From a virus, in the IMG/VR virus record IMGVR_UViG_3300045988_145100, positions 64,001 to 128,000 of that record: a stretch of DNA of 64,000 nucleotides; one strand, written 5' to 3'. A program made the position numbers and the translations under genes. Below the pieces are notes generated by a model. That model searched no databases and was not told where the DNA came from. It was given only the letters and a program-made list of their open reading frames with translations. Shown here one piece after another: positions 12,701 through 63,774 of the stretch (the first letter of the stretch is position 1; the number at the start of each line of letters is the position of its first letter).

Positions 12701-15700
12701 CTATATTGCGAATCAATTTTTGCTCCACTTACTTTAGAAAGCCAATCTTTTCTTTCATCAGCACTCATTTTAGATAAATTATCTGGCAAGTCTATTGTTT
12801 GACTTTCACCTATCAAACTTGCAAAATCTGATAATTTCTTTTGTTTACCTTTATCTTTTCCAAATACACTTTTCTTTTCAAGATATTCTTTAAATGAAGC
12901 ATCAATACTATCTTTTGTTTCTGCTAAATTGTATTTTCTGTCTTCTAATGCTTTTTGGTCTTTTAAAGTAGCTCTATTACCAATAGTTCCCGAAAGCATG
13001 TTTGAAAATTGATTAAATGATTTCTTTGTTTGAAGAAAACCAGACACACTAAAGCCCAATTGAGTAAAAAGTCCAATTATAGAACCAATACTTAATTTTA
13101 AATCTCCAGAAAATAATTCTTCTATAGATTCAAAAACAGAATAAGCACTATTAGCAGTCATCGCAAAACTACTCATAGCACTCGCGCCATTAGCAAAATT
13201 CTCGCCAATACTACCTACAGAAAATCCCATCTCATTAATAGAATCAACTACTGATTTAGAATGATTTTGAACATCTAATAAAGATTTTACATAATCTGCT
13301 AAAGACTTATCTGAAGCCTTTATCGCTTTATGTTGTTCATCAAGTGCGTCAGATATCTTTGTAACATCTGTAGCTTCAAAACCGTAATTTTGTAAAACAC
13401 CTCTGAGATTGCCACTAAGAGTATCTCGATTTGTAAGATAACTCGTTCTATTGTTTTCAATCATCTGTAGCATATGAGCATAGTCTGTTTTATCTGCACC
13501 TGCTACATTCTGACCAGTAATAAGCTTTTTAATATTACCTTCTTTTTTATATTCATTTAATTTCATAAGGTCATCAATCATTCGCTTATTTTCATTTGAA
13601 GAATTATAAAGAGTAGATAATGTTTCTTGCATATCTTTTAAAGAAAATTTACCTGATTTAACTTTATTCATATCAAATAAATTTAAAACTTTATTACTAG
13701 TAGAAATATTAGTTTCATTTCCAGCATATGCTAATTCTGCAGCATTATAGTCTTCAAAAAATTGATTCTGAAGAGCTTCCTGTGCTTCTTCATCAAAATT
13801 AGGATTAACCATGCCTTCAGCTAACTTTTTAGTATCTCTATATTTTTCAAGGTATGATTTATATACTGTTTTATTAATATTCGCACTATTTGTTGGTCTT
13901 CGTTCTTTTTCTGAGAATCTATAATTACCATTCTCATCTGCAGGGTCAACTTGATGTATCATATCCCAATAGCGGCTATTTCTTGCTCTGGTTTTTTCTA
14001 TACCTTTATAGTTTTGACTAAGATAATATTCACTAGGTAATTCATCTGCTTCACCTAATAATACTTTCTTTGCATAAAGCTCTTGTAAAGTATTTTCAGG
14101 TAAATTTTTTGCATAATAAGCTTTGTTTACTTCTGAAGTAATTTTTTCACGAATTTTTTTACTGTCTACGTTGTCTAAAGATAAATTAGTGCTTTTAAAT
14201 CTCTGACCAATAGATGAAATATCGTCAGATGCAGCGTGTCTAGCTTTATTTTTAGTATCATAAATCTGAGCTGTAACTTCAGCTTCTTCTGTTAATTGTT
14301 TTAATTGAGCTTTTTCATTAGCTATTTGTTCTATTTGAGATTCAGTTAAATTTGCATTTATTTTAGCTAACTCTTTTTTCTTCTCAAAAATAGCATTTTC
14401 AATATCATAATTTGCTTTCATATTAGCTACTTGCGCACGGTCTTCTGGCGTTCTTATATCCATTCCCGCAATCATAGCTTTATATTCTTTTTGAGCCTTC
14501 TCTCGGGTTGCCTCAATTTCTTTGCCCATAATACCAAATTTAATTTTAAAGTTATCAACAACTTTATCAACATATTTGCTTATTTGAGGACCTTGATTAG
14601 AAATTATAGTATTTGCTAATAAAATAAAAGCAGTTCTAACTCCACCAACAGAATCAACAAAATGACCAAATCCTTCAATAGCTTTACTAAGGAATTTCAT
14701 TAAATCAACCATAGTTTTACTATCAATAAGATTTGAATAAATTTCTTCTAATGAAGTTTTTATTTTCTTAGATGCGGCATCCCATGATTCTGCATAAATA
14801 TCAGCTTGCTGTTGTAAAGAACCTTCTGCACCCTTAGCTATATTTAAGTTCTCTTGGAAGACATCCCATTTATCCATTAAGGCAATTAATTGGCTATACT
14901 GACGAGTACCTGCAACTGCTTGCGCAACTGCAATCTGTGTATCCTTAGAAATGGTTTTCCATTTAGAACCCATATCGTCTAAGATATCATCCATATCACG
15001 AACTTCGCCTTTTGAATCTTTAATATTAACACCAATAGATTCAAGAGCCTTAGAATACTGACCTAATGTTGTTCCATCATCTAAAGTATTACCTAACTCT
15101 AAGTCCTGGATACGTGCGAATAATGTCTTAAATGCAGTACCTACAGTATCTGCGGACTGACGAGTTTCTGCAACAACAGTTGCAAGAGCAGAAGTAGCAT
15201 ATTCGTATGATAAACCTACAGTATTACCAATAGAAGCAAACTTCTCAAGACCTGCTGCGATTTCATCTGTACTAGATGCAGTTGCCGCACCTAATGCAGT
15301 AAGAACATCTGCAAAGTATTCTACGCTTTTTGAACCATCATTAAAGTTATTCCAAATAGCTGTCATATAAGAAGAAACATCCGCCGCAGTCTCTCCTGTA
15401 ACACTTGCCATCTTTGTAACTGCATCAGTACGTTCCTTAACTGCGGCAGTATCCAGACCTTGCTGATAGAAGATTAATGCCGCATTTGTATATGCAGTTG
15501 TTGTTGTATTTAAAGCTTTGGCAGATTCATTTGCTTGTTTAGCAAATTTAGCCATATTATCTGAACTTTCTCCAGATACTATTCTAATTTCATTTAATGA
15601 TTTATCAAGCTTTCTACTATATTCAAAAGCTTTACTAAATTCTGTTTGTACTTGATGAACGGCACCTGAAGCTACAGTCCATTTCGCACTATTTGTAAGA

Positions 15701-17992: not shown

Positions 17993-18030
17993 AAAAAATG
18001 CGGGGTCGAGTATAATAACCCGACCCCGCT
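17990..18030 (-). terminator. Rho-independent terminator after the major tail protein gene and its extension ORF
   Basis: Stem gcggggtcg (18000-18008) / cgaccccgc (18021-18029); plus-strand A8 at 17991-17998 gives a U8 tract in the minus-strand transcript. Confidence 0.7.
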
Positions 18031-18057
18031 AAAGAAATCCTTGACCGGGATTCCCGC

Positions 18058-23244: not shown

Positions 23245-24279
23245 TTAGGCTGCTGTTCTCTTAAGAGTTGTGTTCTGATATACACAAATTGCATTAGAGA
23301 ATATAGCTCTTACACCGACCTTCTTATAGATATGAATTTCTTCTGAGTTATCATATCCTGTGAAGCTCTTAGCAATTGTACCACCTTCAAATGCAATCTT
23401 AACTGGCTTTTCAGCACCAGTAGGAATAATGAATGCATATGATGGGTCAATAACCTTTGTTGTATTTGTTTCATCTTCAAAAGATTGTGGTAATACAATT
23501 ACTGTATGTCCTTTATAGTTACCAAGGTAACCATTATTCCACTTCTGATTTCTCATTTCATCTGAAATCCAACCTTCTGAAGGAATCATTGTTGCCGCAA
23601 ATTCAAAAGTACAATAAATTGTTGACTTTCCATAAGAATCAGCAATAGAAAGTAATCTATCCATCTGTGATTCATTGAATTTACTATCTGAATGCTTATT
23701 TGCTGCCTGAACATTCTTAGCAGCTCCAATTAACTGCTTCTCAATCTCAACATAGATGCACTCATCAAGACCTTCAAGAACGATATCAAGGACATCTGCC
23801 ATATTTACACGACCATCAAGGAATTCTTCAAAGCCGATTCTAGCAGCGCCACCAATAGCGTTAGTTGTTACTTCGTAAGCACGACCATCAAGTCTGAATG
23901 CCTCGTACATACCATTTAAGCCAACCTTACCAATGAACTGCTTTGCTCTTCTACGAGAAGCTGTTGTAATTCTCTGTAAGAAAATAGGCTTATCTCCTTG
24001 CGCGAATGTCTTAATTTCAGCAAACTGAGAATATTGCTGCATAACTCTCTCTGGTAAAACATCATCGAAAGTTTCTTCTAATAATCTGAATATTGTATTC
24101 TGATTTTCTATATAAGTTCTGTAATCTGGAGCTAAAGCCTGAAACTCTGAACGAAGTGTTTCATGCATATCTTCATAACCAAACTTTTTATCTCCGAAGC
24201 TATAAGCAACAGGAGAAGCTGGATTAGCTTTAGCAACTGTCTTACATAATGCTAACATATCACTATACTGTAATGCCAT
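23245..24279 (-). CDS. Putative major capsid protein
   Basis: 344-aa ORF following the portal and protease/scaffold genes, with a terminator-like hairpin after it. Size and position fit an HK97-fold capsid protein. Confidence 0.5.
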   Translation of the reverse strand: MALQYSDMLALCKTVAKANPASPVAYSFGDKKFGYEDMHETLRSEFQALAPDYRTYIENQNTIFRLLEETFDDVLPERVMQQYSQFAEIKTFAQGDKPIFLQRITTASRRRAKQFIGKVGLNGMYEAFRLDGRAYEVTTNAIGGAARIGFEEFLDGRVNMADVLDIVLEGLDECIYVEIEKQLIGAAKNVQAANKHSDSKFNESQMDRLLSIADSYGKSTIYCTFEFAATMIPSEGWISDEMRNQKWNNGYLGNYKGHTVIVLPQSFEDETNTTKVIDPSYAFIIPTGAEKPVKIAFEGGTIAKSFTGYDNSEEIHIYKKVGVRAIFSNAICVYQNTTLKRTAA

Positions 24280-31548: not shown

Positions 31549-32697
31549 TTATTTTCTTTTATTTCTGCAACATTTACATATACTGTAAAAATGGTCTTTG
31601 CTTGTATTATTTTTTGAAAAGAATCTATTACTAGCTAACTTAATTTGCCCACATCTTGAACATTTTTTCCATTTTCCTTCTGCTTTGTTAGTATAATACC
31701 AAACTAACCATTTCTCTTGTGCCTTTTCCGCAAGTAATTTTGGTATTTTATTTCTCCAAAGAGAAGAAATATATTCAACAGAGTGATTTACATTATATTT
31801 TATTTCTAAATACTCTTGAATTTCTGTATTCTGGTAGCCGCGAATTTTCAAGAGAGTGATATCATAATATATTGGATAATCATATTTTAAAGTTTCATCT
31901 ATAAGATTATCTAAGTCTACAAGAAACCATTTAACATCACTATTTAACTTATCCCAAGTTTGAATTCTTAATTTTTCATAATTACATAATACCGCGCAAA
32001 TATGTCGCGGCACGAGTAAACTTAAAATACCATCAGTATGAATTTCATCATTTTCATCAACAGTTACATGTTCATCTAAATCTAATTTTGCTACACTTTT
32101 AAGGGGATTTATACAATAGATAGGTTTTTTATAAGAATTTTTTATTACATACTGGTCTTGACTTGCTTCTATGATATGTTTTTTTATTTGATATGCTTTT
32201 TTGCCTCTTGCTGTTTTTAACTGTTCTTTTAATTCTTCTATGCCCTTGCGGAGTTCTCTTAGCTCAGGCATTTCCGCGATATCCGCGTCTGTAATTTCAA
32301 ATTTTGGTTTAAATATAATATTTTTGTCATTCGCAATCATATTATATATACCATCTTCACCATTTTCTAATCTACCTACAAGTCCTTCAAAAGATGTCTC
32401 TCTTACATTTACTGTTTGCATATGGTTATCTGTTAAGATTTTGTTTTGTTTTCTTTCTTCTTTATCCATAGCAAAAATTATGTAATTACTTAATTTCTCT
32501 AAGTAAGAATGAGTTAATCTTTCAGGAGGAGTGTTGGCAATAATTTCTTTTACTTTCTCTACTCTTTCCGCAGGTGATTCAATATTAAAATCCATTTTAA
32601 TATAATCACTATTTTCTTTTTGTTGCTCCATTAGTCTTTCCTTATTTCTTATTCTTATAATAATTATACCAAAAAAATTTTCACAAGTCAAGGACAA
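31549..32697 (-). CDS. Hypothetical protein, possible small terminase / DNA-binding protein; true start likely near 32636
   Basis: First gene of the leftward module. Internal Met (MEQQKENSDY...) with a better SD; C-terminal Cys cluster CSRCGQ...CKCCRNKRK. Confidence 0.35.
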   Translation of the reverse strand: MSLTCENFFGIIIIRIRNKERLMEQQKENSDYIKMDFNIESPAERVEKVKEIIANTPPERLTHSYLEKLSNYIIFAMDKEERKQNKILTDNHMQTVNVRETSFEGLVGRLENGEDGIYNMIANDKNIIFKPKFEITDADIAEMPELRELRKGIEELKEQLKTARGKKAYQIKKHIIEASQDQYVIKNSYKKPIYCINPLKSVAKLDLDEHVTVDENDEIHTDGILSLLVPRHICAVLCNYEKLRIQTWDKLNSDVKWFLVDLDNLIDETLKYDYPIYYDITLLKIRGYQNTEIQEYLEIKYNVNHSVEYISSLWRNKIPKLLAEKAQEKWLVWYYTNKAEGKWKKCSRCGQIKLASNRFFSKNNTSKDHFYSICKCCRNKRK

Positions 32698-32714
32698 AAG
32701 TAGATAATTTGAAA

Positions 32715-32745
32715 AGAAAAAAAATTTTTGATATAATTATTATAA
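32715..32745 (+). promoter_or_regulatory. Promoter for the first rightward gene, in a divergent switch region
   Basis: ttgaaa ... tttttgatataat gives TGnTATAAT, with an SD and ATG at 32760 downstream. Confidence 0.45.
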
Positions 32746-32759: not shown

Positions 32760-33065
32760 ATGATAGTCGCGGCGATTGGTTTTAATAAAATTGAAGATAT
32801 TGATGCGGAAATGCAGAAGTTAATTGCGGAAAGTCAATGCTATTTATTTTATATGCTAGTAACAAATAAAGATAGCATTGCCGCAAAATGGGCTGATTCG
32901 GTTGGCGCGCCGACCCGCTATATAAAAAATGCGGAAACTTCAGATATTATAAAAAATTGTGATTTCCTATTAATTAACTTAGGGGATGGAAATAATACTA
33001 AATTAAATAATCTGTTTATGGCATATAAGCAAACAGGGAAACATGGAAGAGTTGTTCGGAATTAA
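32760..33065 (+). CDS. Hypothetical protein, 101 aa
   Basis: First plus-strand ORF after the strand switch; good SD (aaaggagtgaataaaaATG). Confidence 0.45.
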   Translation: MIVAAIGFNKIEDIDAEMQKLIAESQCYLFYMLVTNKDSIAAKWADSVGAPTRYIKNAETSDIIKNCDFLLINLGDGNNTKLNNLFMAYKQTGKHGRVVRN

Positions 33066-33669
33066 TCTCGTATTTTAAAAAACGAAAAAATTTTTGGTGT
33101 GTGAATCGTTTTTTAAATTTCAAAAAATTTGGGGTGTGTGAATGTACCAGCTAAATATGATTTCATCGAATTAATTTTTCATTTTCCCATAATATATCCC
33201 CGGGTAAAAAGAGAAAATTTTTTTATTTTAAACTGATGACCACCTTTTATGTATGGTCTGTAGTTTTATCAAAAAATAATCAGCATACACTGAGACTGTA
33301 GTCCCGTACATTTTCAAATCATCGGCGCGCTTCCTCCCATAAAGCGCTCCGCATTTTACTATATTTCTAGTCATTTAAACATTTCAAATTCTAAAAGTCT
33401 AATCAAGTAGTCAAATAAAAATTCCCACAACTCATGCGTCTAAAAAACTAAACTATTCTCGGAGCTGACTAAAGCGGTGAACAAATGTTCGGTACTTCCA
33501 TCTTGGTGCATTCTCTTTTGTACAAATTGCACAAAAACATCTGTCAAACTTTGTGCATTTTGCATATTGCAATGAGTGCGCGGTGGGTGTACTATAATGG
33601 TGTCGCAAGGCAATGGCGGCAAAATAAATTAGATAGCCCTTGAGAAGCAAGGGCGGAAAGAGGTATATT

Positions 33670-34155
33670 ATGATAAAAGGAAACAAGCTGATTGCAACAA
33701 TGAGGTCAATAATAGGTAAAGAAGTTAAAGAGGGCAACTGGCTCTGTGTTGATACAGTAGCAGATAATGCTCTTATGATAATCAATACAATCCACAGTGT
33801 AGTTAATGCTGTAGATTGCAAGATAATCCTCAAGGGGTTTATTTATGAGGATTCAGCAGAGTGTTGGGCAAAGTTAGAGATGGAACTTGACTGTCTCACT
33901 CAAGGCAATCAGCTTCAGGAGCTTTTCGGTGGAGCATTACTTAAGGAAATGCAGAATCAAGTAAACTCCGCAATCGCGGAGTTTGAACTCCAGGAAGTAA
34001 CCTACGGAGTTTATAATGGCAACACTCCAATCTTTACAGGGATTGAAAGTTATGGCACAGCATTATCAGTATTCTATAATACAGCTAAAGCTTGCAAAAT
34101 ACTAGGTCTTAGATGTAGCTTAGTAAATGAAAAAACTGGGGAGGTGGTAGAATGA
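33670..34155 (+). CDS. Hypothetical protein
   Basis: ORF-track frame 33640-34155. Preferred start is ATG 33670, which has SD gaaagaggt. Confidence 0.45.
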   Translation: MIKGNKLIATMRSIIGKEVKEGNWLCVDTVADNALMIINTIHSVVNAVDCKIILKGFIYEDSAECWAKLEMELDCLTQGNQLQELFGGALLKEMQNQVNSAIAEFELQEVTYGVYNGNTPIFTGIESYGTALSVFYNTAKACKILGLRCSLVNEKTGEVVE

Positions 34156-34329
34156 GTTTTTTAGAAGCTATAGTGATGGTGGAGCAATGCTCCACTGTCA
34201 CAGAAGTCAATCAGAAAGTTGACTTTGTGCTTACGCACATAGTCATATCTGATGACGAACTTCTTAGTCTTATGGAGTTCATCATCGGCTTCATGTCTAG
34301 TCTATTAGATGAGTGCGGAAACCGCTAAT
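34153..34329 (+). CDS. Small hypothetical ORF, 58 aa
   Basis: ATGA overlap with the upstream gene; stop lies in the loop of a 13-bp hairpin at 34300-34334. Confidence 0.25.
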
Positions 34330-34480
34330 CCGCACTCATCTAGTTTAGGAAAGACTAACTTGAGTTAGTCAAGCTTAATGCTTGTTAATTCAAACTAACT
34401 CTAGTTAGTCTTCCCGAAATCTAATTAGTTTAGTCTAACTATTGTTAGGCTTGACTAACTTTGGTTAGTTATTTTGAACG
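34330..34480. repeat. Cluster of palindromic iterons (A)CTAACT-N2-3-AGTTAG(T), locus 1
   Basis: At least four copies, e.g. actaacttgagttagt, actaactctagttagt, ctaactattgttag, actaactttggttagt. Confidence 0.55.
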
Positions 34481-34837
34481 GCACGCTTCCTCCCATAAAG
34501 CGTGTCGCATTTTGCCTATTTGACTAGTTATTTAAACTTTTCAAATCGACATTGAGTGTGACTACAAGACTAATCATATCCCATAATTGATGACTATTTG
34601 ACTACAAAAGTAAACACATCGTCACTATTGCTGACTAAAAAAGTAGTCACATCATCGTCTGGTGCATGTGTTTGGGTGCGTGAAAAGCCTTGAAAATAGG
34701 GCATAAAAAAATTTTTAAAAATTTTTGAAAAAAGTGTTGACATTGAAAACGGGGTATGATATTATAATGGTGCGGTGAACGAAAACCGTAAAATAAAATT
34801 GATAGTCTTTCAAGAGAGAGACAGAAAAGAGGTTACT

Positions 34838-35889: not shown

Positions 35890-36062
35890 AGACGAATTGA
35901 AGTTCGTTTTATAAAAGTAAAGTTAGCAATTTTTAACAGTTGTTAATTCAAACTAACTCTAGTTAGATTAAGCTAATCCTTGTTAATTCAAACTAACTGT
36001 AGTTAGATTAAGCTAACTTAAGTTAGACTTATAAAACACTTGTTAGTTCAAACTAATTTAAG
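35890..36062. repeat. Cluster of palindromic iterons plus 35-bp direct repeats ttgttaattcaaactaactNtagttagattaagctaa, locus 2
   Basis: Two near-perfect 40-bp tandem copies and a third degenerate copy; the agttag/ctaact half-sites recur throughout. Confidence 0.55.
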
Positions 36063-36113
36063 TTAGAATAATCGCACCGGGCGGAGCACGTCCGGCCCCG
36101 CCGGAATTTGCCT

Positions 36114-36142
36114 ATTATACCACCTTTTAGGATTTTTGTCAA
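36114..36142 (-). promoter_or_regulatory. Leftward sigma70 consensus promoter (TTGACA-N17-TATAAT on the minus strand) abutting a GC hairpin terminator, module A
   Basis: Plus strand: attata at 36114-36119 and tgtcaa at 36137-36142, 17-nt spacer. Confidence 0.5.
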
Positions 36143-36347
36143 GGGAAAAAAGTTGACATATTGCACAAACATTATCCCAAAATCTTGTGCAGTTTTGACT
36201 ATTGCAATTTTGGGGCAATCTGCTATAATGATACTTGTAAGGGAGATAACAAATGAGATTGCTAAACAACCCGAACAAAAAAAAAGAAGTGCTTGACAAA
36301 TAGATACCTAAGTGATATAATAAGGGTATAGAAAGGAAGTAATGGTT

Positions 36348-36632: not shown

Positions 36633-36744
36633 CGCAATAAAATGTGCTATCATATATATGTGGAAAGGAAAGGGAGCCATCAATCGACCACATTAAAAAA
36701 TAAAAATCAGCTTCAAATATTATATAAAAGCGAGGTATTGCATT

Positions 36745-37122
36745 ATGGAAAAGAAGATTACAAAGTTACAGGTTATCGAGGCTATGCTTGGAGAAGAGTT
36801 CGTACAGGACAATGAGATGTATAAGACTTATCTTATGCACGAAAAGGAACTCCTTGAGAAGAAGAAAGCTAAGGCTAAGGCTGGTTCTGATAAGAAAGCT
36901 AAGGCTAATGAAGCACTGGTTGAGAAGCTCAAGGTTGTCCTTGACGGTTTCAAGGGTACTTCTACTCAGATTATGCTCAAGGCTATGAAAGACTTCCCTG
37001 CTGATGAAGCGGTTCAGGCGCTTTCTAATCAGAAAGTAGTTGCACTTCTCAAGATTATGGTTGCCAATGGCACAGCAAAGAGAGAAGAGGAAAAGGACAA
37101 GGCAATCTTCTCACTTGTCTAA
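36745..37122 (+). CDS. Putative winged-helix DNA-binding protein, paralog A1
   Basis: 125 aa; N-terminus MEKKITKLQVIEAML is identical to the paralog at 41656. C-terminus ...QKVVALLKIMVANGTAKREEEKDKAIFSL has a wing-like pattern. Confidence 0.45.
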   Translation: MEKKITKLQVIEAMLGEEFVQDNEMYKTYLMHEKELLEKKKAKAKAGSDKKAKANEALVEKLKVVLDGFKGTSTQIMLKAMKDFPADEAVQALSNQKVVALLKIMVANGTAKREEEKDKAIFSLV

Positions 37123-41512: not shown

Positions 41513-41655
41513 TAGCTTAAAACAGAGTGAAGATTTAGCTGTTAATCTTGAGACCGGACAGCTCCGCAAGTTTGATAAGGATTATCGAGTTACAGAAGTA
41601 TCAACAGAGTGCAATGTTGTAGATGATTAATTAAGAAAGAAAGAGGTAAAAAATT

Positions 41656-42036
41656 ATGGAAAAGAAGATTACTAAATTACAGGTTATTGAAGCAATGTTA
41701 AATGAGGAATTTATTCAGGATAATGAGATGTATAAGACATATCTCACACATGAGAAAGAGTTGCTCCTTAACAAGAGGAATAAGAACAGCAAGGATAATG
41801 AGAAGAAGTCTGCTGCGAATAAGGCTCTGACAGAGAAGCTGTTGGAAGTAATGAAAGATGTAAGCGGAACTGCTACCCAGTTGACTTTCACACTGATGAA
41901 AGTTTACCCAGATGACGCAGATGTTATGGCATTAACTAATCAGAAAGTTACTTATCTCTTAAAGGAACTCGCGCAGGCTGGTACTATCAAGAGAGAAGAA
42001 ATTAAGGGTAAGCCTATCTACTCTTTAATTGAATAA
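41656..42036 (+). CDS. Putative winged-helix DNA-binding protein, paralog A2
   Basis: Shares its N-terminus and overall architecture with the gene at 36745. Confidence 0.45.
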   Translation: MEKKITKLQVIEAMLNEEFIQDNEMYKTYLTHEKELLLNKRNKNSKDNEKKSAANKALTEKLLEVMKDVSGTATQLTFTLMKVYPDDADVMALTNQKVTYLLKELAQAGTIKREEIKGKPIYSLIE

Positions 42037-44159: not shown

Positions 44160-44335
44160 GGTTGCACACTACACAACCTCTATTTTTATTGTATTTTAAT
44201 ATATTTTTATTATTACACAACCTCTATTTTTGTTATTTTTATTGTATTTTAATATATTTTTATTATTGCACAACCCCTATTTTATTACATTTTAATTAAA
44301 AAAATATAAACAAATACAATCCCTATTTTTTTAAA
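44160..44335. repeat. Three tandem copies of an AT-rich repeat of about 53 bp
   Basis: (t)tgcacaacctctatttttattgtattttaatatatttttattat repeated with minor variation. Confidence 0.6.
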
Positions 44336-56881: not shown

Positions 56882-56999
56882 TTGATATTTATAAAAATTT
56901 ATGTTATAATATTTATATAATAAATAAGACACAAACAGCAATTTTTTAGCTTATAAGAAAGCACTACTCTGTTAAAGTAGATAACTGTGTCTTGTGTTT

Positions 57000-57073
57000 G
57001 GTCCTTTAGCTCAGCTGGTTAGAGCGCTCGTCTCATAAGCGAATGGTCCTGGGTTCGAGTCCCAGAAGGTCCA
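57000..57073 (+). tRNA. tRNA with anticodon CAT (Met / fMet / Ile-lysidine class)
   Basis: Hand-folded cloverleaf: acceptor ggtcctt/aaggtcc (one T-T mismatch), D-arm gctc-agctggtta-gagc, anticodon loop ctCATaa, T-arm ctggg-ttcgagt-cccag. Confidence 0.6.
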
Positions 57074-57582
57074 TTTAAGAATTTATCAGTTCTTAATGCG
57101 TGCATACAGTATTAGATATGTTGACTTGCTTATCAAATAGTTATAAGTCGTGAGTTACTGCGTTAAAGATGACAAGTTGTATGATAATAGTTTTCTTAAA
57201 GCTTTTATTAGGGCGGCAACCTGCCGATAACAAATAGCCATTTTTTAAAAATTTTTGGACAAAGTAATTTAAGTATTATAAAATATTTTTTATATAAAAT
57301 ACAAACTTGAAAAATATAAAAAAATATGATATAATATTTATATAAAGAAAAGAGGTAAGTTACTACCCATGCTTCTCCTCTATAAAAAAGAAGGTATGCA
57401 GGGTGAGGTTGACGGAGAGCGACTAAGGCTGCGGTTTACCCAAGAGAATAAAATCTCCTACTAGCGAAATCTAGTTAAAACTACCAAATTACTCATAGTC
57501 GTATAACAGTAATTTGATTTTTATAAAAATTTATGTTATAATATTTATATAAGATAAAGAAAAAAATATTTTTCCTCTCTCA

Positions 57583-57653
57583 TTCAAAGGTAGGATGCAC
57601 GCCTGTTAAGCGTAGAATCTGGGTTCGAATCCCAGGGGAGGAGCTTCCAGTTG
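57583..57653 (+). tRNA. tRNA-Asn (GTT)
   Basis: Acceptor tcctctc/gggagga, anticodon stem (c)acgc/gcgt(a) with loop ctGTTaa, T-arm ctggg-ttcgaat-cccag. Confidence 0.55.
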
Positions 57654-57915
57654 CGGAACTGGTTAAATAAAACCGAGTAGTCAGTTGTCAGTAACCTTGT
57701 TAAAACTGTCAATGTTCATATCCGAAGAGATTTCAGTGTTCGGTAGAGGTTATGAATGAAGAATGTAGTGAGTTCGATTCTTGCTTGTCCGCCGTAGTTG
57801 GACACATGGTGGCATTTGAAGTATTCCTTGTTGGTTGATTAAATGAAACATGTTGCCGCATGTGGATTAAAATACCAAAATACCTTGACTATAATGACGG
57901 CAATCATTATAGAAA

Positions 57916-57989
57916 TGCTTGTTAGTTTAAATTAATTGGAAAAACACTCCGGGAAGGGGAGATGTTGGGTTCGAATCCCACACAAGTGA
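57916..57989 (+). pseudogene. Degenerate tRNA-like element: canonical T-arm but aberrant D and anticodon arms
   Basis: ttggg-ttcgaat-cccac T-arm and a pairable acceptor, but a 13-nt D-loop, a 4-bp anticodon stem and loop gggaagg with purines at positions 32/33. Confidence 0.25.
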
Positions 57990-58264
57990 TTTTGTCAAAG
58001 CAAAGACATTAAAACTCGCTGATTATTAGGTGTGAATAATAGTCGTTGGCTACATGCGTAAGAAAAATAGTTCGAGAGAGCTATCGGAGCCGTAGAGGAG
58101 AAAGATATCGGCATATGGATAACACACTCCTAGATGCGAGAAATCAAATTAAAGGAAGATGGTATATGCAGCTAATAGAGAGAGTAAAGAGCGCTAGCTT
58201 GTAGCGAAACAACCTGCCAAAAGTAAGTTTATTGGTTTATCTTACATTGGTGAAAAACCTTTTA

Positions 58265-58335
58265 ATTTTATAATCTGGTTTAGTTTAATGGTAGAACCCT
58301 GGCTTTGTAACCCAGTAACGAGAGTTCGACTCTCT
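58265..58335 (+). tRNA. tRNA-Thr (TGT)
   Basis: Acceptor tctggtt/aaccaga, D-arm gttt-aatggta-gaac, anticodon stem ctggc/cccag (C31-C39 mismatch) with loop ttTGTaa, T-arm gagag-ttcgact-ctctc. Confidence 0.55.
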
Positions 58336-58373
58336 CAACCAGAATTAGTACTTTAGTACTAGAAAGGAATGTT

Positions 58374-58652
58374 ATGAAAATATGGCTTGATGATTTAAGA
58401 AAAGCACCTTGCGGATATGTGTGGTGTCATTCAGTTAATGAGACTATATTATTTATTGAGAAGAATAAAAGTGATATAGAATTAATTGATTTAGACCATG
58501 ATTTAGGTGATTTCGCTAAAGATGGCGGCGATGCTATTTATTTAATGGATTATTTAATAGAAAAGAAGTTATTCTATAAGCTAAATTTTCATACTGCAAA
58601 TCCAGTAGGCTTAGCAAATATGTTAAGATTGTATGATAGATACTGGGTATAA
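58374..58652 (+). CDS. Small hypothetical protein embedded in the tRNA array
   Basis: 92-aa ORF (MKIWLDDLRKAPCGYVWCH...) with SD aaaggaatgtt, lying between tRNA-Thr and tRNA-Ala. Confidence 0.4.
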   Translation: MKIWLDDLRKAPCGYVWCHSVNETILFIEKNKSDIELIDLDHDLGDFAKDGGDAIYLMDYLIEKKLFYKLNFHTANPVGLANMLRLYDRYWV

Positions 58653-58725
58653 GGGGCTGTAGCTCAGTTGGGAGAGCATTCGTTTTGCAAGCGAAAGGTC
58701 GTGGGTTCGAACCCCACTAGCTCCA
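58653..58725 (+). tRNA. tRNA-Ala (TGC)
   Basis: Acceptor ggggctg/tagctcc (two G-U pairs), D-arm gctc-agttggga-gagc, anticodon stem ttcgt/gcgaa with loop ttTGCaa, T-arm gtggg-ttcgaac-cccac. Confidence 0.6.
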
Positions 58726-58735
58726 TTAATCATAT

Positions 58736-58764
58736 TTGATTTTTATAAAAAAATATGATATAAT
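58736..58764 (+). promoter_or_regulatory. Consensus promoter copy inside the tRNA array
   Basis: ttgatt-N17-TGa-tataat. Confidence 0.6.
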
Positions 58765-58929
58765 ATTTATATAAGATATGAAAAAAGAAAAAATGTGAAA
58801 AAGATTTTGTAGTAGCATTAAAAATGACAATATACTAATCAGAAAATCTTTATGCGGAAACGCTCTGTAATTAGTATTTCAAGTTTAAATTAGATTGTTT
58901 GGCGTTAACAATAAAATAAAACGCCACTT

Positions 58930-59010
58930 GCGGGATTGGTGAAATTGGCAAACACATACGATTTAAGCTCGTACGCTTTAAGCTTGTGAGTTCGAGTCTC
59001 ACATCCCGCA
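58930..59010 (+). tRNA. tRNA-Leu (TAA), type II
   Basis: Acceptor gcgggat/atcccgc, TG-gtg-aaattggcaaa-cac D-arm as in bacterial tRNA-Leu, anticodon stem tacga/tcgta with loop ttTAAgc, 12-nt variable arm, T-arm gtgag-ttcgagt-ctcac. Confidence 0.65.
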
Positions 59011-59135
59011 CTAACCTAAGAAATTAAATTGTGGTATAAAGACATGATAACTAAGTCTTGTAAGAGATTATTTTATCTTTTATAAAAGTTTTCTTCTCTA
59101 CTAGTGAGTAACAAGCTTTTGAAGTTATCTTATAT

Positions 59136-59205
59136 GTATCATTCGTATAATGGTTTGTACGCTGGGTATTCCCTAGAAGAGTGAGTTCGAATCTTACATG
59201 ATACT
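59136..59205 (+). pseudogene. tRNA-like pseudogene with a 5-nt anticodon loop
   Basis: Perfect acceptor gtatcat/atgatac, normal D-arm and T-arm (gtgag-ttcgaat-cttac), but an anticodon arm ctggg-tattc-cctag. Total length 70 nt. Confidence 0.35.
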
Positions 59206-59313
59206 TTTTAGGCACTAACAGCGAATTTGATGATTCTAACAAACAAAAATATTTGTATGTAAAATGCTAAAGGCTTTATATCCTTTAATTAATCAATAGT
59301 GTCTAGTTTTTCT

Positions 59314-59385
59314 TGAGAGATAATATAATGGTTAGTATGCCTCTCTGATACGGAGGTCATCCGAGTTCAACTCTCGGTCTCTCAA
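59314..59385 (+). tRNA. tRNA-Ile (GAT)
   Basis: Acceptor tgagaga/tctctca, anticodon stem cctct/ggagg with loop ctGATac, T-arm ccgag-ttcaact-ctcgg. Confidence 0.6.
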
Positions 59386-59586
59386 TTTAACACTAGTCTG
59401 AATGGCGTGTCGCGGCGATAGGTCAGACGAAGATTATAGGAAAGTCTCCTGGCACATAATGAGATACTGCCTATATCAGACAGAAGCGAACTGTCTTTAA
59501 ATCAAATGATTAACTCTTACAGCAAAATATGTAGACAACACTATTTTTAAATAGTTTTCATAATACATACCCGAGTTTAGAAATAT

Positions 59587-59615
59587 TTGATTTTTATAAA
59601 AAAATATGTTATAAT
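59587..59615 (+). promoter_or_regulatory. Consensus promoter copy inside the tRNA array
   Basis: ttgatt-N17-TGt-tataat. Confidence 0.6.
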
Positions 59616-59765
59616 ATTTATATAAGATATGGGTTTATAAGTGGCTAGTAACTTCCGTCTAACTTACCCAGACATAGAGTTACCTTTTATCAAGAAAGTA
59701 AATCTTGGTCGTGCGACTACGAGAAGTTACTCTTTGCCAACTAGAGTATAATATAAGTTGGATTT

Positions 59766-59839
59766 GGCTTCTTCTTCTAATCGGTTTAGGAATCTAGGTT
59801 CTCATCCTAGGAATGTCAGTTCGAATCTGGCAGAAGTCA
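59766..59839 (+). tRNA. tRNA with anticodon CTC (Glu by the genetic code); identity is tentative
   Basis: Acceptor ggcttct/agaagtc, anticodon stem ctagg/cctag (perfect) with loop ttCTCat, T-arm gtcag-ttcgaat-ctggc. Confidence 0.45.
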
Positions 59840-59903
59840 TTCAGATGCGAAGTTTTGATAAGTTACCTCTTTTCTATATGCTAGGATTTTCTCCTAGCAG
59901 CTT

Positions 59904-59975
59904 GGCTCTTTCGTCTAGCGGTTAGGACAGCGCCCTTTCACGGCGCAGACCCGAGTTCGAATCTCGGAAGAGTCA
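59904..59975 (+). tRNA. tRNA-Glu (TTC)
   Basis: Acceptor ggctctt/aagagtc, D-arm gtct-agcggtta-ggac, anticodon stem gcgcc/ggcgc with loop ctTTCac, T-arm ccgag-ttcgaat-ctcgg. Matches the classic bacterial tRNA-Glu pattern. Confidence 0.65.
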
Positions 59976-60031
59976 TTTAATCAAAAATTTTTAAATTTTT
60001 GATATAAAGGTTTTGGTGGATAATTACCACC

Positions 60032-60066
60032 CTCCTTTACTTAAAGATATACTATAAAGTAAGGAG
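60032..60066 (+). promoter_or_regulatory. RNA hairpin that sequesters the ribosome-binding site of the GIY-YIG endonuclease gene
   Basis: 5' arm c032-t042 (ctcctttactt) pairs with 3' arm a057-g066 (aagtaaggag). The SD aaggag at 60061-60066 lies entirely inside the 3' arm, 6 nt before ATG 60073. Confidence 0.5.
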
Positions 60067-60072
60067 TATTTA

Positions 60073-60699
60073 ATGAGTTATATTTATAAAATTGTTAATT
60101 CTATTAACAATAAAATGTATATTGGTAAAACATCATTTCCAATAGAAAAAAGATTTCAAGAACATATTTCAGCTAGTAAAAAAGAAAGATGTGAAAAGCG
60201 TCCTTTATATGATGCAATGAATAAATATGGAATAGAAAATTTTTTCATAGAACAAATTGAAGAAGTTGAAAATGATGATATTGCTTGTCAAAGAGAACAA
60301 TACTGGATAAAGAAATTAAGAACATATGTAGGCTATGAAGATTGCGTAGGTTATAATGCTACTTTAGGTGGTGACTCAAGAAGATTATATGATTATGAAG
60401 AAATTTCTAAAAAGTATATTGAGTTACAATCAGTTAAAGAAACTTGTAAATTCTTCAATTGCGATAAGTTAGTTGTTAATTTAGCTTGTAAAGAAAATAA
60501 TGTAACAATTCTTGATGGTAGGCAAAGAAAACAAGTTAGGAGATACAATATAGATAAGACTGAATATAAAGATTATCCTTCAATAACAGAAGCTGCTAAA
60601 GATATCCCTAATAAACCAATAGAAACAGCAAGAAAAAATATCTCAAGAGCAATAAATAAAGGTTTAGTTGCTTATGGATATTATTGGAAAAGAATTTAG
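60073..60699 (+). CDS. GIY-YIG homing endonuclease (SegB-like, free-standing, inside the tRNA array)
   Basis: N-terminal YIYKIVNSINNKMYIGKT...R...EH...N GIY-YIG catalytic motifs; C-terminal basic DNA-binding region (AYGYYWKRI, NUMOD-like); 208 aa. Confidence 0.75.
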   Translation: MSYIYKIVNSINNKMYIGKTSFPIEKRFQEHISASKKERCEKRPLYDAMNKYGIENFFIEQIEEVENDDIACQREQYWIKKLRTYVGYEDCVGYNATLGGDSRRLYDYEEISKKYIELQSVKETCKFFNCDKLVVNLACKENNVTILDGRQRKQVRRYNIDKTEYKDYPSITEAAKDIPNKPIETARKNISRAINKGLVAYGYYWKRI

Positions 60700-60702
60700 T
60701 GC

Positions 60703-60776
60703 CGCGGGTTGGAGAAGTCAGAATCTCGTCGGACTCATTATCCGAAGAACGCTGGGGCAGAGCCAGCACCCGCTAC
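60703..60776 (+). pseudogene. Possible degenerate tRNA-like remnant (CAT-type anticodon loop) immediately after the endonuclease gene
   Basis: gcgggt...acccgc acceptor-like helix, anticodon-like arm tcgga-ctCATta-tccga, atypical T-loop ggcagag. Confidence 0.2.
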
Positions 60777-60901
60777 TTGGTTTTTCTGAATTTCTTCCTT
60801 TAAAAATTCAGTTCATATAAATTTCCTTTCTGTTAGCGGATTGGTTGACAATAATGTCAACCTTACCCGCTTGATATAAACAAAAGGAAATAAAAATCTA
60901 T

Positions 60902-60930
60902 TTGATATTATATAAAATTTATGATATAAT
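60902..60930 (+). promoter_or_regulatory. Consensus promoter copy
   Basis: ttgata-N17-TGa-tataat. Confidence 0.6.
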
Positions 60931-60973
60931 ATATATGTAACAAAGAAAAGGAAAAGAAAAGGAGATTTATATT

Positions 60974-61294
60974 ATGGCAGGACAGAATAAGAGAGTATCA
61001 AGAGTATCAAATGGTGGTAGAACAAAGGCTCATAAAGCTCAGGAAGCTAAGCGTCAGGCAAAGTTTGCTGCAAAGCGTGAAGCTGGAAAAGCTTATGTAT
61101 ATAAGGCAAATCCTTACAAGCCTTACACAAAGAAGTGGTGGATTGAAAAGGACAAGAGGGCGGAGAAAGCTAAGTCATCAAGAGTTCCTTATGCAATCGT
61201 AACATCAATCTTTGCTAAGCTTGATAATAAGATTGCTAAAGAGAAAGAAGCTGCAGCTAAGGCAAAAGCTAAGAAGGCTGCGGCAACCGCTTAA
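60974..61294 (+). CDS. Highly basic Lys/Ala-rich protein (histone H1-like / nucleic-acid-binding) inside the tRNA array
   Basis: 106 aa: ...AKRQAKFAAKREAGKAYVYKANPYKPYTKKWW...AKEKEAAAKAKAKKAAATA; SD aaaaggagat. Confidence 0.45.
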   Translation: MAGQNKRVSRVSNGGRTKAHKAQEAKRQAKFAAKREAGKAYVYKANPYKPYTKKWWIEKDKRAEKAKSSRVPYAIVTSIFAKLDNKIAKEKEAAAKAKAKKAAATA

Positions 61295-61306
61295 TAAAAT
61301 AAGCGT

Positions 61307-61380
61307 GCTAGAATAGCTCAAATGGTTAGAGCAGGCGTTTCATAAGCGTCAGGTTGCTAGTTCGATTCTAGCTTCTAGTA
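61307..61380 (+). tRNA. tRNA with anticodon CAT, second copy (Met / fMet / Ile-lysidine class)
   Basis: Acceptor gctagaa/ttctagt (G1-U72), D-arm gctc-aaatggtta-gagc, anticodon stem ggcgt/gcgtc with loop ttCATaa, T-arm gctag-ttcgatt-ctagc. Confidence 0.55.
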
Positions 61381-61385
61381 TTTAT

Positions 61386-61469
61386 AGGGGAGCGCCGAAG
61401 TTGGAGAGTCGGGGCGGTCTGTAAAACCGTTGCCTTCGGGCTGAGTGAGTTCGAATCTCACCTCCCCTA
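61386..61469 (+). tRNA. tRNA-Tyr (GTA), type II
   Basis: Acceptor aggggag/ctcccct, anticodon stem gcggt/accgt with loop ctGTAaa, long variable arm tgccttcgggc, T-arm gtgag-ttcgaat-ctcac. Confidence 0.6.
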
Positions 61470-61908
61470 CTAGGTTGGAGATTACCTAAAAATCTTCTGT
61501 TAAGCTTTTCTTAATTTTTTATATAAGGATTTTATAATACCTAATATAAAAGATTATTGTTTTCCATAAAAGTTAATACTGAAAACAAAGATGTTTTGTA
61601 CAAACACCATATGTAAGTAGAGCTTCCGAGCTGCGATACTTCATTAAAGCCCATACCGCAATATTACTTTTAATAGATAGAAAATAATGCTCAAATGTAT
61701 TTTTTTGGTTTTAAAAGAGTTTATTAATGCGGGCTTTGTAATTAAACATTAGTAAACAAAATATAGTCCATACAGCAAATGTTCAAGAATATCAGATGAT
61801 TTTATTACTTATTAATTCTTACAGCTGTAAATTACACTGATGACTTATTAAATACTAAAACTTAGGACTTAGAAAATAATAGTTTTAATATAATGATAAG
61901 TCATTTTT

Positions 61909-61980
61909 GCTTCTATCGTTCATCGGTTAGGACAATGTCCTGTCACGGCATAGAGGTGGGTCCGACTCCCACTAGAAGCG
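61909..61980 (+). tRNA. tRNA-Asp (GTC)
   Basis: Acceptor gcttcta/tagaagc, D-arm gttc-atcggtta-ggac, anticodon stem atgtc/ggcat with loop ctGTCac, T-arm gtggg-tccgact-cccac (atypical C55). Confidence 0.55.
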
Positions 61981-62435
61981 TTCACCATAGTTTAAGTATA
62001 ATGAGTTTTAATTAGTAAGTACATGACGATGTTACTGAAGATTAATACATAGTTATACATCAAATTAATTCTTGACTATAGCAGGGGTGATTTGTAGAAC
62101 AGTCTGCCAGTAGCAGAAAGATTCAGTAGAAGTCTGAGGGTGACTTTAATGTTTTTGTGCTAAGCACAGTATTCTAATTTTACTAAACAAAATTTTAAGT
62201 ACAAGAATTGGTTTAGTGCTGCAGTATTTATCAGTATTGTAGCTATGCTGTTGATGATACAGCCGAGGTTAAAGAGCGTTAGTGACCAGTGGTGGTGTTA
62301 TGCTTTGTAATGAAGCATGTTAAGCTAATGACACACGGTTAGGTTTGAGATGTAGAGAGCAAGTCTCAGAAGGCAAGACCTATCAGAATAACAAGCATCT
62401 TAGGGTTGCAACCTCATGATAGGAAATAGCTAAAT

Positions 62436-62507
62436 GCAGGTGTAGTACATCGGCTAGTGCGCCAGACTTCCAATCTGGATAGACGGGTTCGATTCCCGTT
62501 ACCTGCT
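62436..62507 (+). tRNA. tRNA-Gly (TCC)
   Basis: Acceptor gcaggtg/tacctgc, anticodon stem ccaga/tctgg with loop ctTCCaa, T-arm acggg-ttcgatt-cccgt. Confidence 0.6.
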
Positions 62508-62622
62508 TTATCGTAGGGGTTTGGAATCCCCTAAATGAGGCAACCGCCGCGATAATACAAAATTCTTGCAAGAAACAAAATATTATACAATAGAATTCTT
62601 ATTGGTTGTAGGTTCTATTGTT

Positions 62623-62696
62623 TGTGGTGTAGCTCAATCAGGTAGAGCGTTAGCGGCTGGAGCTAAAGGTTAGAGGTTCAAATCCTTTCACCACAA
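62623..62696 (+). tRNA. tRNA-like gene with a non-canonical anticodon loop ggCTGga (G at position 33); possibly Gln-CTG, or a pseudo-tRNA
   Basis: Perfect acceptor tgtggtg/caccaca, D-arm gctc-aatcaggta-gagc, perfect 5-bp anticodon stem ttagc/gctaa, T-arm agagg-ttcaaat-ccttt. Confidence 0.35.
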
Positions 62697-62809
62697 TTCT
62701 GTAGTCGGCATTGGTAAACATAGGAAACTAGATGTCGATGGTTATGAATAAGGATAAAAGTTGCAACAAAACTTGTTCAGATTATGCGGAATTGCAACAC
62801 CGCATTTTC

Positions 62810-62883
62810 GGGGAATTAGCTCATATGTGGCAGAGCACTCGGTTGAAGCCCGAGGCGGAGAGGCTCGATACCTCTACTCCCCA
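62810..62883 (+). tRNA. tRNA-Phe (GAA)
   Basis: Acceptor ggggaat/actcccc (one A-C mismatch), D-arm gctc-atatgtggca-gagc, perfect anticodon stem ctcgg/ccgag with loop ttGAAgc, T-arm agagg-ctcgata-cctct (atypical T-loop). Confidence 0.5.
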
Positions 62884-63029
62884 TTTTATTAAAGGCTTAA
62901 ACAGCAATTCAGTGTAAGTACTGGTTGAGAAAAACAAATATTAAAATATTAAAGTTATTAAATAACGAGCCTAGCATAATAGATTATTTCTTAATTTTAA
63001 TATAAAGTAGCTTTATAGTTACTCTTATT

Positions 63030-63103
63030 GCGCCTATAGCTCAGTTGGCTAGAGCATCAAACTTTTAATTTGAGGGTCCCGAGTTCGAGTCTCGGTGGGC
63101 GTA
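63030..63103 (+). tRNA. tRNA-Lys (TTT)
   Basis: Acceptor gcgccta/tgggcgt, D-arm gctc-agttggcta-gagc, anticodon stem tcaaa/tttga with loop ctTTTaa, T-arm ccgag-ttcgagt-ctcgg. Confidence 0.6.
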
Positions 63104-63408
63104 TTAAAATATTAGTGCCTTAACTGAGAGTCAGGATTCAAAGGTTAAATGAGGTAATCAGTCCATAAATCAGCTAATACTTTTAATGTAAGATAAAAGA
63201 AGAAAAAGGGTTTAGGACTTCTTTTGTAACGATACACAAACCAGCAACCCTGAGCTTTATATTAGCAACAGTCCACGAAGTAATTTTCTAGGAGTGCTGT
63301 TTAGGTGGTTATCTCTTACAAAAATAAACAGTAGAAAGGAGATAAATATGAGAAAGGATATTCATACAGCTTTTCACCTATAAGTTCTTTTTAAAGGAGG
63401 AATTATAA

Positions 63409-63684
63409 GTGAGTAGAAGTTATAAAAAACATAATTGGTATTGTGACCACAAAGGAAAAGAGAAAAAAAGAACTGCTAATTCAGTAGTCCGTATGTGGTT
63501 AAAAGACCATCCAGATGAAGTTATCAAAAGGAGTAGTTATAAAAAAATTTATGAAAAGTATGATATTTGTGACTGCAAAATTTTTGCTTCTTGGGAAGCT
63601 TATTATTTAAGCTGTTTAAGATGGGGCGATACTGATTATAAGAGAATTTATCGAACATGGCTTCAGGTTTATAGAAATAAATAA
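63409..63684 (+). CDS. Small basic hypothetical protein (GTG start) inside the tRNA array
   Basis: SD aaaggagg 8 nt upstream of GTG 63409; 91 aa rich in Lys, Arg, Tyr and Cys. Confidence 0.4.
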   Translation: MSRSYKKHNWYCDHKGKEKKRTANSVVRMWLKDHPDEVIKRSSYKKIYEKYDICDCKIFASWEAYYLSCLRWGDTDYKRIYRTWLQVYRNK

Positions 63685-63686
63685 TT

Positions 63687-63771: not shown

Positions 63772-63774
63772 TTT

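Follow-up and report, generated by a model that had tools for sequence, protein, structure and literature searches.

The window analyzed here is a stretch of 64,000 nucleotides (positions 64,001 to 128,000 of the IMG/VR virus record IMGVR_UViG_3300045988_145100). It is part of the genome of a siphophage of about 150 kb with a low GC content (approximately 30-37%). The minus-strand block from 496 to 32697 was found to be the siphovirus structural and packaging module, hereafter called the late block. It encodes a portal protein, a large terminase, a protein of a PHROG family annotated 'sigma factor', and a protein of 3110 aa that is a tape measure protein according to PF10145 and the tape-measure PHROGs. 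From 32760 rightwards, many small orphan genes with sigma-A-type promoters are followed by 19 tRNA genes. By the large terminase, the named phages closest to it, at about 45% identity, are the Enterococcus phages H1, VRE9_4, and EF1, Geobacillus virus E3, and the gut phage phAss-1. The phAss-1 group consists of siphoviruses of 133-136 kb whose tape measure proteins have about 3150 aa and whose hosts are presumed to be Clostridia (PMC10607447).

An element of about 70 bp is present in two copies, one in each of the two non-coding leaders with which the rightward early region opens; their distances from the start of the late block are 0.6 and 1.8 kb. Copy 1 (33323-33391) follows a rightward ORF of 101 aa (32760-33065), which has its own promoter at 32709-32737, and is the first terminator-like hairpin 3′ of this ORF. 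Between the copies, the ORF list and the promoter and terminator scan revealed a rightward operon of two genes (161 aa and 58 aa; 33670-34328). This operon ends with a 14-bp hairpin that lacks a U run (34306-34342), and the next hairpin with a U-rich tail is copy 2 (34479-34548). Rightward promoters were found 3′ of both copies: a weak TTGCAA-17-TACTAT near 33567-33595 and another at 34737-34765. A previous reading of the sequence without database searches (the sequence-only reading) likewise placed both copies upstream of promoters. The region around the copies is also crowded with palindromic iterons of the form GACTAAC-N4-GTTAGTC and with GACTA boxes, and there are 16 GACTA boxes in one kilobase as compared with 1.5 on average.

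The two copies lie in register and in direct orientation, and they are identical at 57 of 69 positions (83%), with 25 of 29 in the hairpin and 32 of 40 in the AT-rich half that follows it. The rest of the two leaders (about 300 nt) is 49% identical. A local alignment of leader against leader scored 70, while shuffled sequences scored 15.9 ± 2.3 with a maximum of 28. A 17-mer core occurs twice in the window, where 0.12 occurrences are expected, and a 23-nt block, CTAGTYATTTAAACWTTTCAAAT, is present within the window only at the two copies (0.01 expected). The duplicated element described in the sequence-only reading is real, while its coordinates for the second copy were about 4 nt out of register. 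Since the genes behind copy 1 and copy 2 are unrelated, it was a regulatory leader and not a gene unit that was duplicated, and a tandem duplication of whole gene units is ruled out.

The hairpin of copy 1 (33323-33351, plus strand) consists of the 5′ arm CGGCGCGCTT (33323-33332), the loop CCTCCCATA (33333-33341), and the 3′ arm AAGCGCTCCG (33342-33351). The hairpin of copy 2 (34479-34507, plus strand) has the 5′ arm CGGCACGCTT (34479-34488), the same loop CCTCCCATA (34489-34497), and the 3′ arm AAGCGTGTCG (34498-34507). The stem is longer than was noticed before and spans 10 positions (CGG-N-GCGCTT / AAGCGC-N-CCG). In copy 1, the fourth position is a C.T mismatch (1x1), which leaves 6+3 pairs, while in copy 2 all 10 positions are paired, one of them as G.U. 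The stem substitutions had been read as compensatory changes in general. One of them is a true compensatory change (G-C to A-T); the others are the repair of the mismatch to C-G and a change of G-C to G.T. On the plus strand, the predicted folding energies are -12.2 kcal/mol for copy 1 and -14.4 kcal/mol for copy 2 (z -2.9 and -4.8). On the minus strand, they are -15.2 and -13.4 kcal/mol, and the z-scores of the hairpins over both strands range from -2.9 to -4.8. The hairpin persisted when longer contexts were folded, and that of copy 2 was kept in a context of 227 nt.

The AT-rich half of copy 1 (33352-33391) carries a U-rich tail, CATTTTACTATATTT, when read on the plus strand, and promoter-like hexamers when read on the minus strand. 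The latter are a -35 hexamer TTGAAA (33387-33382) and a -10 hexamer TATAGT (33363-33358) separated by an 18-nt spacer, with a match of 10/12. The -10 hexamer ends 6 nt from the hairpin. A GACTAG box (CTAGTC on the plus strand) lies in the spacer at 33367-33372. The AT-rich half of copy 2, as defined by alignments (34508-34548, tail CATTTTGCCTATTTG), keeps the -35-like TTGAAA of the minus strand and the spacer block with its GACTAG box (34522-34527). An acceptable -10 hexamer was not found in it (AATAGG or CAAATA is present). No promoter was found on the plus strand within the element. The conserved spacer with its GACTAG box suggests the binding of a phage DNA-binding protein. A promoter for a phage sigma factor was also considered for the element and rejected, since the late operons have ordinary sigma-A-type hexamers and the 23-nt block is found nowhere else in the window.

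The AT-rich half of copy 2 has relatives further downstream. Its ATTT(T)GCCTATT sequence is shared with a consensus leftward promoter unit (36105-36116), and its tail ATTTTGCCTATT is the tail of a 12/12 leftward unit at 36142. This unit sits behind the next operon, in a place equivalent to that of copy 2. At both places, the order is a hairpin without a U run, palindromic iterons, and a GC hairpin. I read the AT-rich half as a leftward promoter of this kind that has decayed or is regulated.

Is the element conserved in other phages? A protein-anchored search with the adjacent late gene yielded 22 viral and 39 metagenomic loci. Only two close relatives, L001 and L002 (147- and 150-kb contigs), were found among them, with 96% protein identity and 84-91% DNA identity to the window. 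Both have exactly two copies of the element, and a pattern scan found none elsewhere in IMG/VR. In these two relatives, the copy 1 promoter has the same geometry (10/12 at 6 nt), and no promoter was scored for copy 2 in any of the three genomes. A metagenome search for intermediate relatives found none above 63% protein identity. A search of the phage collection for distant DNA similarity gave no match. In 596 Gb of prokaryotic genomes, a 19-mer core had five scattered matches, which is about the number expected by chance, and none of them is in a repeat or phage context. The idea of a solitary CRISPR-repeat mimic (RNA anti-CRISPR) or of a host mimic was dropped, since the matches are at chance level only.

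The comparison of the three genomes also confirmed that the copies lie in non-coding leaders, as the sequence-only reading had it. The sole ORF overlapping either copy is a minus-strand ORF of 48 aa (33374-33228), and it has no start codon in L002, so that a hidden small protein was rejected. Mini-ORFs starting from the AUG in the loop or from the AUG after the stem are not conserved either. In L001, there are an extra ORF of 87 aa and a different N-terminus between the copies, and the breakpoints (about 33673 and 34003) are located away from the elements.

The restriction of the exact element to three genomes raises the possibility that it has no present function and is a recent duplication or a gene-conversion tract between paralogous leaders, inherited by three close genomes. 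Consistent with this, the conservation between orthologous versions of copy 2 (87-91%) does not exceed that of the flanks (78-94%). On the other hand, the two paralogous copies are far more similar to each other than the remaining leaders are (83% as compared with 49%). Moreover, the stem changes keep the pairing, and the element is a full member of a hairpin family under clear structural selection, as described below. A functionless duplication is thus quite improbable.

Weak profile matches in distant relatives led to a general hairpin scan and then to a covariance model, R1, built from 19 members. The lead hairpins in the relatives have a common 5′ arm, CGGCGCGC(TT), and a 3′ flank of (A/C)ATTT(T)GCC, with differing loops. 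The R1 model consists of an 8-bp stem (CGGNNNGC/GCNNNCCG) with a T/G-rich 5′ flank and an (A/C)ATTT 3′ flank. Copy 1 scored 37.2 bits (E 5e-9) and copy 2 scored 37.4 bits (E 4e-9), both being among the 19 seed sequences of the model. A search with R1 gave 66 matches, 60 of them distinct, in 55 sources (575 kb). Of these matches, 63 are in the early-gene orientation (the plus strand of the window) and lie within early regions. The exceptions are two weak opposite-strand re-matches of the same palindromes and a weak minus-strand match in the late block of the window (17993-18034), which is the only match in the window other than the two copies. In distant relatives, the hairpins can be dense, with up to eight in an early region of 8.5 kb (L007). 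They lie between the end of a gene or the T-run of a terminator and the next rightward promoter or control region. The family was not found in the cultured relative Enterococcus phage VRE9_4. In a search of Rfam, the gathering score was reached by tRNAs only, and no credible match was found over either copy at E values up to 10.

The stem of the 60-member family is 94% paired, and seven of the eight pairs have changed on both sides; there are 56 double-change cells as compared with 14 in shuffles, none of 500 shuffles reached the observed values, and no slid register came close, although these figures lean towards structure because the model guided the alignment and many of the seeds had been picked up as perfect hairpins. 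More directly, the arms vary within identical genomic contexts (CGGCGCGC, CGCCGCGC, GGCCGCGC, CGGCGTGC, CGTGCCGC, CGGCTCGC, and CGGCCCGC), and this variety is direct evidence for selection on pairing. Thus, since seven of eight stem pairs covary, the selection on the hairpin structure is real, and the family supports it more strongly than the two copies alone could have done. The sequence-only reading had named as its own refutation the case that only two copies exist and that related genomes do not conserve the stem. There are indeed only two copies of the exact element per genome, but the stem is conserved in related genomes. The wobble pairs of the family are eight G.U and two A.C, and four of the G.U pairs come from one lineage.

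In contrast to the stem, the loop is not conserved. The sequence-only reading proposed that the CCUCC loop could pair with Shine-Dalgarno sequences. In such a mechanism, the plus-strand hairpin would expose CCUCC and titrate or mask Shine-Dalgarno sequences in cis or in trans; in the mirror image, a leftward RNA would present GGGAGG as a mimic to ribosomes or to a CsrA-like protein. It is true that the 9-nt loop is identical in five of the six copies of the three genomes and that several family loops are pyrimidine-rich, with TCCT on the plus strand (AGGA on the minus strand). However, the loop is conserved only within these three closely related genomes, where, with the copies 83% identical, an unbroken match of 19-21 nt is nothing unusual. 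The loop of copy 1 in L002 is ACTCCCATA, in which CCTCC is broken (ACTCCC). In all other family members (54 or more), both the sequence and the length are unrelated, and the loops of the family range from 7 to 15 nt without a common sequence motif. Since the elements lie upstream of the rightward promoters, they would not be on the same RNA as the downstream ribosome-binding sites. These sites are AGAGGT, not GGGAGG, and no GGGAGG was found at the plus-strand gene starts in the window. The family promoters that read into the hairpin are on the opposite strand, where the loop of the two copies reads GGGAGG and not CCUCC. The proposal did not survive this comparison, and pairing of the loop with Shine-Dalgarno sequences, like its mirror image, is highly improbable.

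The leftward promoters are a recurrent trait of the family. A leftward sigma-A promoter matching at least 11/12 was found in 22 of the 60 members, and its -10 hexamer ends 5-17 nt, mostly 7-8 nt, from the stem. With this spacing, a leftward RNA would begin at the hairpin. A GC hairpin stands within 12 nt after a near-consensus promoter in 33 of 126 leftward cases as compared with 3 of 259 rightward cases. By inspection, most of the leftward promoters without a hairpin either lie within a coding sequence or stand ahead of a start codon with its ribosome-binding site. Leftward sister units are present in the window at 36142, 37663, 40825, and 42528, and they look like self-contained units for leftward RNAs of about 40 nt. 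The promoters of the sister units in the window and in the relatives match at 11-12/12.

A reading of the element as nothing but a leftward unit, either a small-RNA gene or a promoter, was considered. In that case, the hairpin would be a 5′-terminal stem-loop that serves as an exonuclease stabilizer, as an insulator, or as an antisense to the 3′ end of the upstream operon, and rightward termination would be incidental. The tightly fixed spacing in the 22 consensus units, the bias of the hairpins towards leftward promoters, the sister units, and the TTGAAA-18-TATAGT of copy 1 at 6 nt from the stem in three genomes all speak for it. Nevertheless, copy 2 has no usable -10 hexamer in any of the genomes and is conserved as well as copy 1, and the leftward promoter is missing in 35 of the 60 family members, including all versions of copy 2. 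Since these 35 lack the promoter, capping the 5′ end of a leftward RNA cannot be the universal role of the family. In addition, no terminator was found on the minus strand after the hairpin at either copy. A promoter alone gives no explanation for the sequence conservation of the 40-nt AT-rich half including the spacer. I regard a purely leftward unit as fairly unlikely.

The rightward transcript offers another role for the hairpin. The scan reported no plus-strand terminator between 33065 and 33322, and for neither copy did it report another one in the stretch that separates the copy from the operon before it. The tails of the copies (CAUUUUAC and CAUUUUGC) each have five U in 8 nt from offset 2. 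At least five U in 8 nt is found in 46% of the family tails as compared with 16% of background positions. The scan did not call the copies as terminators; their tails are rich enough in U for it, and the 9-nt loop alone excludes them. Like an intrinsic (Rho-independent) terminator, the element has a stable GC-rich stem (-12.2 and -14.4 kcal/mol), a U-rich stretch, and an operon upstream on the same strand. The G.U pair of copy 2 also fits an RNA of the plus strand. Unlike a textbook terminator, which has a loop of 3-8 nt and a U tract that follows the stem directly, it has a loop of 9 nt, two non-U bases before the U tract, and only four contiguous U. A further 40 nt is conserved downstream, which a terminator does not need. 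About half of the family hairpins stand just 3′ of the T-run of a canonical terminator, and many of the tails are U-poor (AAUUUG or GAAAUU) directly behind such a terminator. Thus, termination cannot be the universal role of the family.

It was also considered whether the element acts at the DNA level. The GC palindrome, the AT-rich block, and the GACTA boxes might assemble into a nucleoprotein complex as an origin, as a packaging or terminal-repeat boundary near the terminase block, or as an operator array, possibly with a cruciform or a single-stranded DNA hairpin. The number of copies (exactly two per genome), their closeness to the start of the packaging and late block (0.6 and 1.8 kb), the dense GACTA boxes and palindromic iterons around them, and the sequence conservation of the AT-rich half including the GACTAG box would fit such a site. 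However, the arms covary without a fixed sequence, which favors a folded single strand over a duplex recognized by a dimer. The occurrence of up to eight hairpins over 8.5 kb in distant relatives is a misfit to a unique origin or packaging site, and the direct, not inverted, orientation of the copies offers no simple route to terminal repeats. A DNA-level site is therefore unlikely.

A hairpin promoter of an N4-type virion RNA polymerase was rejected as well. This kind of promoter goes with a giant virion RNA polymerase gene and has a stem of 5-7 bp and a loop of 3 nt. In this phage, the ORF of 3110 aa encodes the tape measure protein, and the loop is 9 nt.

Taken together, I estimate a roughly even chance that the element is a unit of a modular boundary cassette, by which the short early operons that run rightward in this phage clade are kept apart. 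The first half of the cassette would be a GC-rich RNA hairpin followed by a U-rich tail on the rightward transcript. The hairpins of the two copies are probably intrinsic terminators of the preceding operons, or attenuators that also cap the 3′ ends of the transcripts. The second half would be AT-rich and derived from a leftward sigma-A promoter that starts right at the hairpin, so that the same stem-loop would form the 5′ terminus of a short leftward non-coding RNA. Copy 1 has kept a weak leftward promoter (10/12), and its hairpin may stand at the 5′ end of a leftward RNA expressed at a low level, while copy 2 seems to have lost the -10 hexamer. The conserved GACTAG spacer may be a site for a phage DNA-binding protein. 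What the sequences show is the duplication, the covariation of the stem, the constant orientation and location between genes, the geometry of the promoters, and the absence of a conserved loop; the transcribed strand, termination, leftward initiation, and protein binding are inferred. By position and structure, the pair in the window is an unremarkable member of the family. The family itself occurs in large phages from gut and rumen. As a class of intergenic phage cassettes it has, as far as I know, not been described before, although the concept is a familiar one.

Among described systems, the PeSL (promoter-early stem-loop) cassette of T4-type phages comes closest. PeSLs are conserved composites of a promoter and a stem-loop between orphan early genes (Arbiol et al. 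2010, PMC2839356; Comeau et al. 2014, PMC4122927). Termination of upstream transcription by the stem-loop has been proposed and shown, recombination between PeSLs shuffles genes, and in one PeSL subclass the stem-loop lies just 3′ of the -10 hexamer (PMC2839356, PMC4122927). The element resembles a PeSL as a short conserved intergenic composite of a stem-loop and, in part of the family, a sigma-70-type promoter. Such composites recur in large lytic phages between early genes that are small orphans, and the flanked genes differ between close relatives. In contrast, the promoter-like hexamers here are on the strand opposite to the flanking genes. They face away from the downstream genes and converge with the upstream operon, while the promoter of a PeSL drives a downstream ORFan. 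Of the two copies in the window, one has a weak promoter and the other has none, and over half of the family lacks it. The stems here are GC-rich, covarying helices of 8-10 bp with loops of 7-15 nt, and the host is a Firmicute and not a proteobacterium. No sign of recombination at the elements or of mini-circles was found, and the L001 breakpoints lie elsewhere.

Two other kinds of stem-loop are worth comparing. The ermC and aprE leaders and the SP82 early RNA are examples of Gram-positive mRNAs with 5′-terminal stabilizing stem-loops. The promoter-bearing family members resemble them in that the hairpin begins within 0-3 nt of where the leftward RNA is predicted to start, while no coding sequence follows, and the RNAs here would be short non-coding or antisense ones. 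The REP/BIME sequences are bacterial extragenic GC-rich palindromes which are thought to cap the 3′ ends of mRNAs and to attenuate read-through. Like them, the hairpins are GC-rich, 3′ extragenic, and fixed in orientation. Unlike them, the hairpins form a family of phages and not of hosts, and they show compensatory differences instead of being near-identical mobile copies. No transposase associated with the hairpin family was seen.

The pair in the window adds little beyond the cassette reading, and it does not point to a new kind of translational regulator. Of more interest is that, across the clade, convergent promoters of consensus type are coupled to 5′ hairpins. It is conceivable, if a long shot, that the leftward consensus promoters firing into GC hairpins behind many early operons constitute a dedicated system, in which convergent tiny RNAs with a 5′ hairpin insulate the operons or shut off the early transcripts. 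The two copies would then be specialized members whose leftward RNA has a GGGAGG loop, a decoy that might draw off ribosomes or a CsrA-type protein. If the boundary-cassette reading is true, the early regions of large uncultured siphophages of the Clostridia type would be assemblies of standard boundary cassettes, in each of which a structured stop signal is combined with a convergent promoter, unlike in the co-directional PeSL cassettes of T4-type phages. To my knowledge, such a convergent-promoter architecture of boundary cassettes has not been described. The cassettes would help to delimit transcription units when phages of this group, of which only metagenomic sequences are known, are annotated, and they may provide compact terminator or insulator parts for low-GC hosts.

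Five units consisting of a leftward sigma-A promoter and GC-rich hairpins were found on the minus strand of the window, at 36142-36073, 37663-37590, 38998-38925, 40825-40755, and 42528-42465. Four of the five promoters score 11-12 out of 12 and have an extended -10 element. Each promoter is followed, after 8-9 nucleotides, by two 5-bp GC hairpins, CCGGC-NNN-GCCGG and then CGNNC-NNN-GNNCG. In three units a U run lies behind the hairpins, which predicts leftward transcripts, about 40 nt long, that contain no ORF. On the plus strand, these same hairpins have the form of terminators for the operons upstream.

Is this dense boundary-cassette architecture, a GC hairpin combined with a leftward sigma-A promoter between early operons, present in a cultured relative? 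It was not found in Enterococcus phage VRE9_4, since only one promoter there, with the hairpin CGCTCGC-CA-GCGAGCG, is directly followed by a GC hairpin. About 1.2 kb of non-coding DNA separates the late block of that phage from the early one, and a promoter-like unit (TTCACA-16-TATAAT with a palindrome) occurs there in duplicate; the sites concerned are at 23273-23440 and 14811-14870 of its sequence.

In the window, I found two arrays of the palindromic site GACTAAC-N4-GTTAGTC (34353-34470 and 35921-36066), the former containing four sites at spacings of 40, 40, and 20 bp. Both arrays are flanked by an operon-end hairpin lacking a U run on one side and by a GC hairpin on the other, which is copy 2 of the duplicated boundary element in one case and the unit at 36092-36104 in the other. 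The RNA fold of 34296-34522 has a z-score of -10.7. The arrays are kept in the two close relatives, and they resemble operators or iterons that a dimeric DNA-binding protein would occupy. Immediately to the right of copy 2 lies a cluster of GACTA/TAGTC boxes (34522-34648); kilobase 34-35 has 16 such boxes, compared with a mean of 1.5 per kb, and a weaker cluster surrounds copy 1 (33293-33473). In distant relatives the corresponding position is occupied by different short repeats; examples are TTTACAC in L018 and, in L015 (1-100), GTAACCA, which occurs five times there.

Several other repeats were found. Downstream of the 101-aa ORF there is a direct repeat, AAAAATTT(T)GGKGTGTGTGAAT, at 33083-33106 and 33122-33146, and the first copy of this repeat is partly or wholly absent from the two close relatives. 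A 147-nt repeat with 72% identity is at 36719-36865 and 41630-41776; the two small genes that contain it, 36745-37122 and 41656-42036, are paralogues. A tandem 53-nt AT-rich repeat with 92% identity occupies a non-coding stretch (44181-44286).

The first late-block gene (31549-32697, minus strand) matches a PHROG family annotated as 'sigma factor' (E 1e-49). Its product has no Pfam hit, and its C-terminal part weakly matches endonuclease VII. Since the late operons of the window have ordinary sigma-A-type promoters, a sigma-factor role is doubtful. At the far end, 19 tRNA genes are predicted in an array (56999-63939). The ARAGORN predictions for tRNA-Asn (anticodon ATT, 59136-59205) and tRNA-Tyr (61386-61470) were not matched by the Rfam tRNA model at the gathering score.

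The stretch that leads from the boundary hairpin to the rightward promoter after it contains an inverted repeat, TTGCACAAA...TTTGTGCAA, and a short conserved motif, TCCC(A/G)NAA. Both recur in leaders of the window (about 33528-33556 and 36161-36192) and in distant relatives (L007, L013, and L017). They probably mark an operator or a control region common to the clade.
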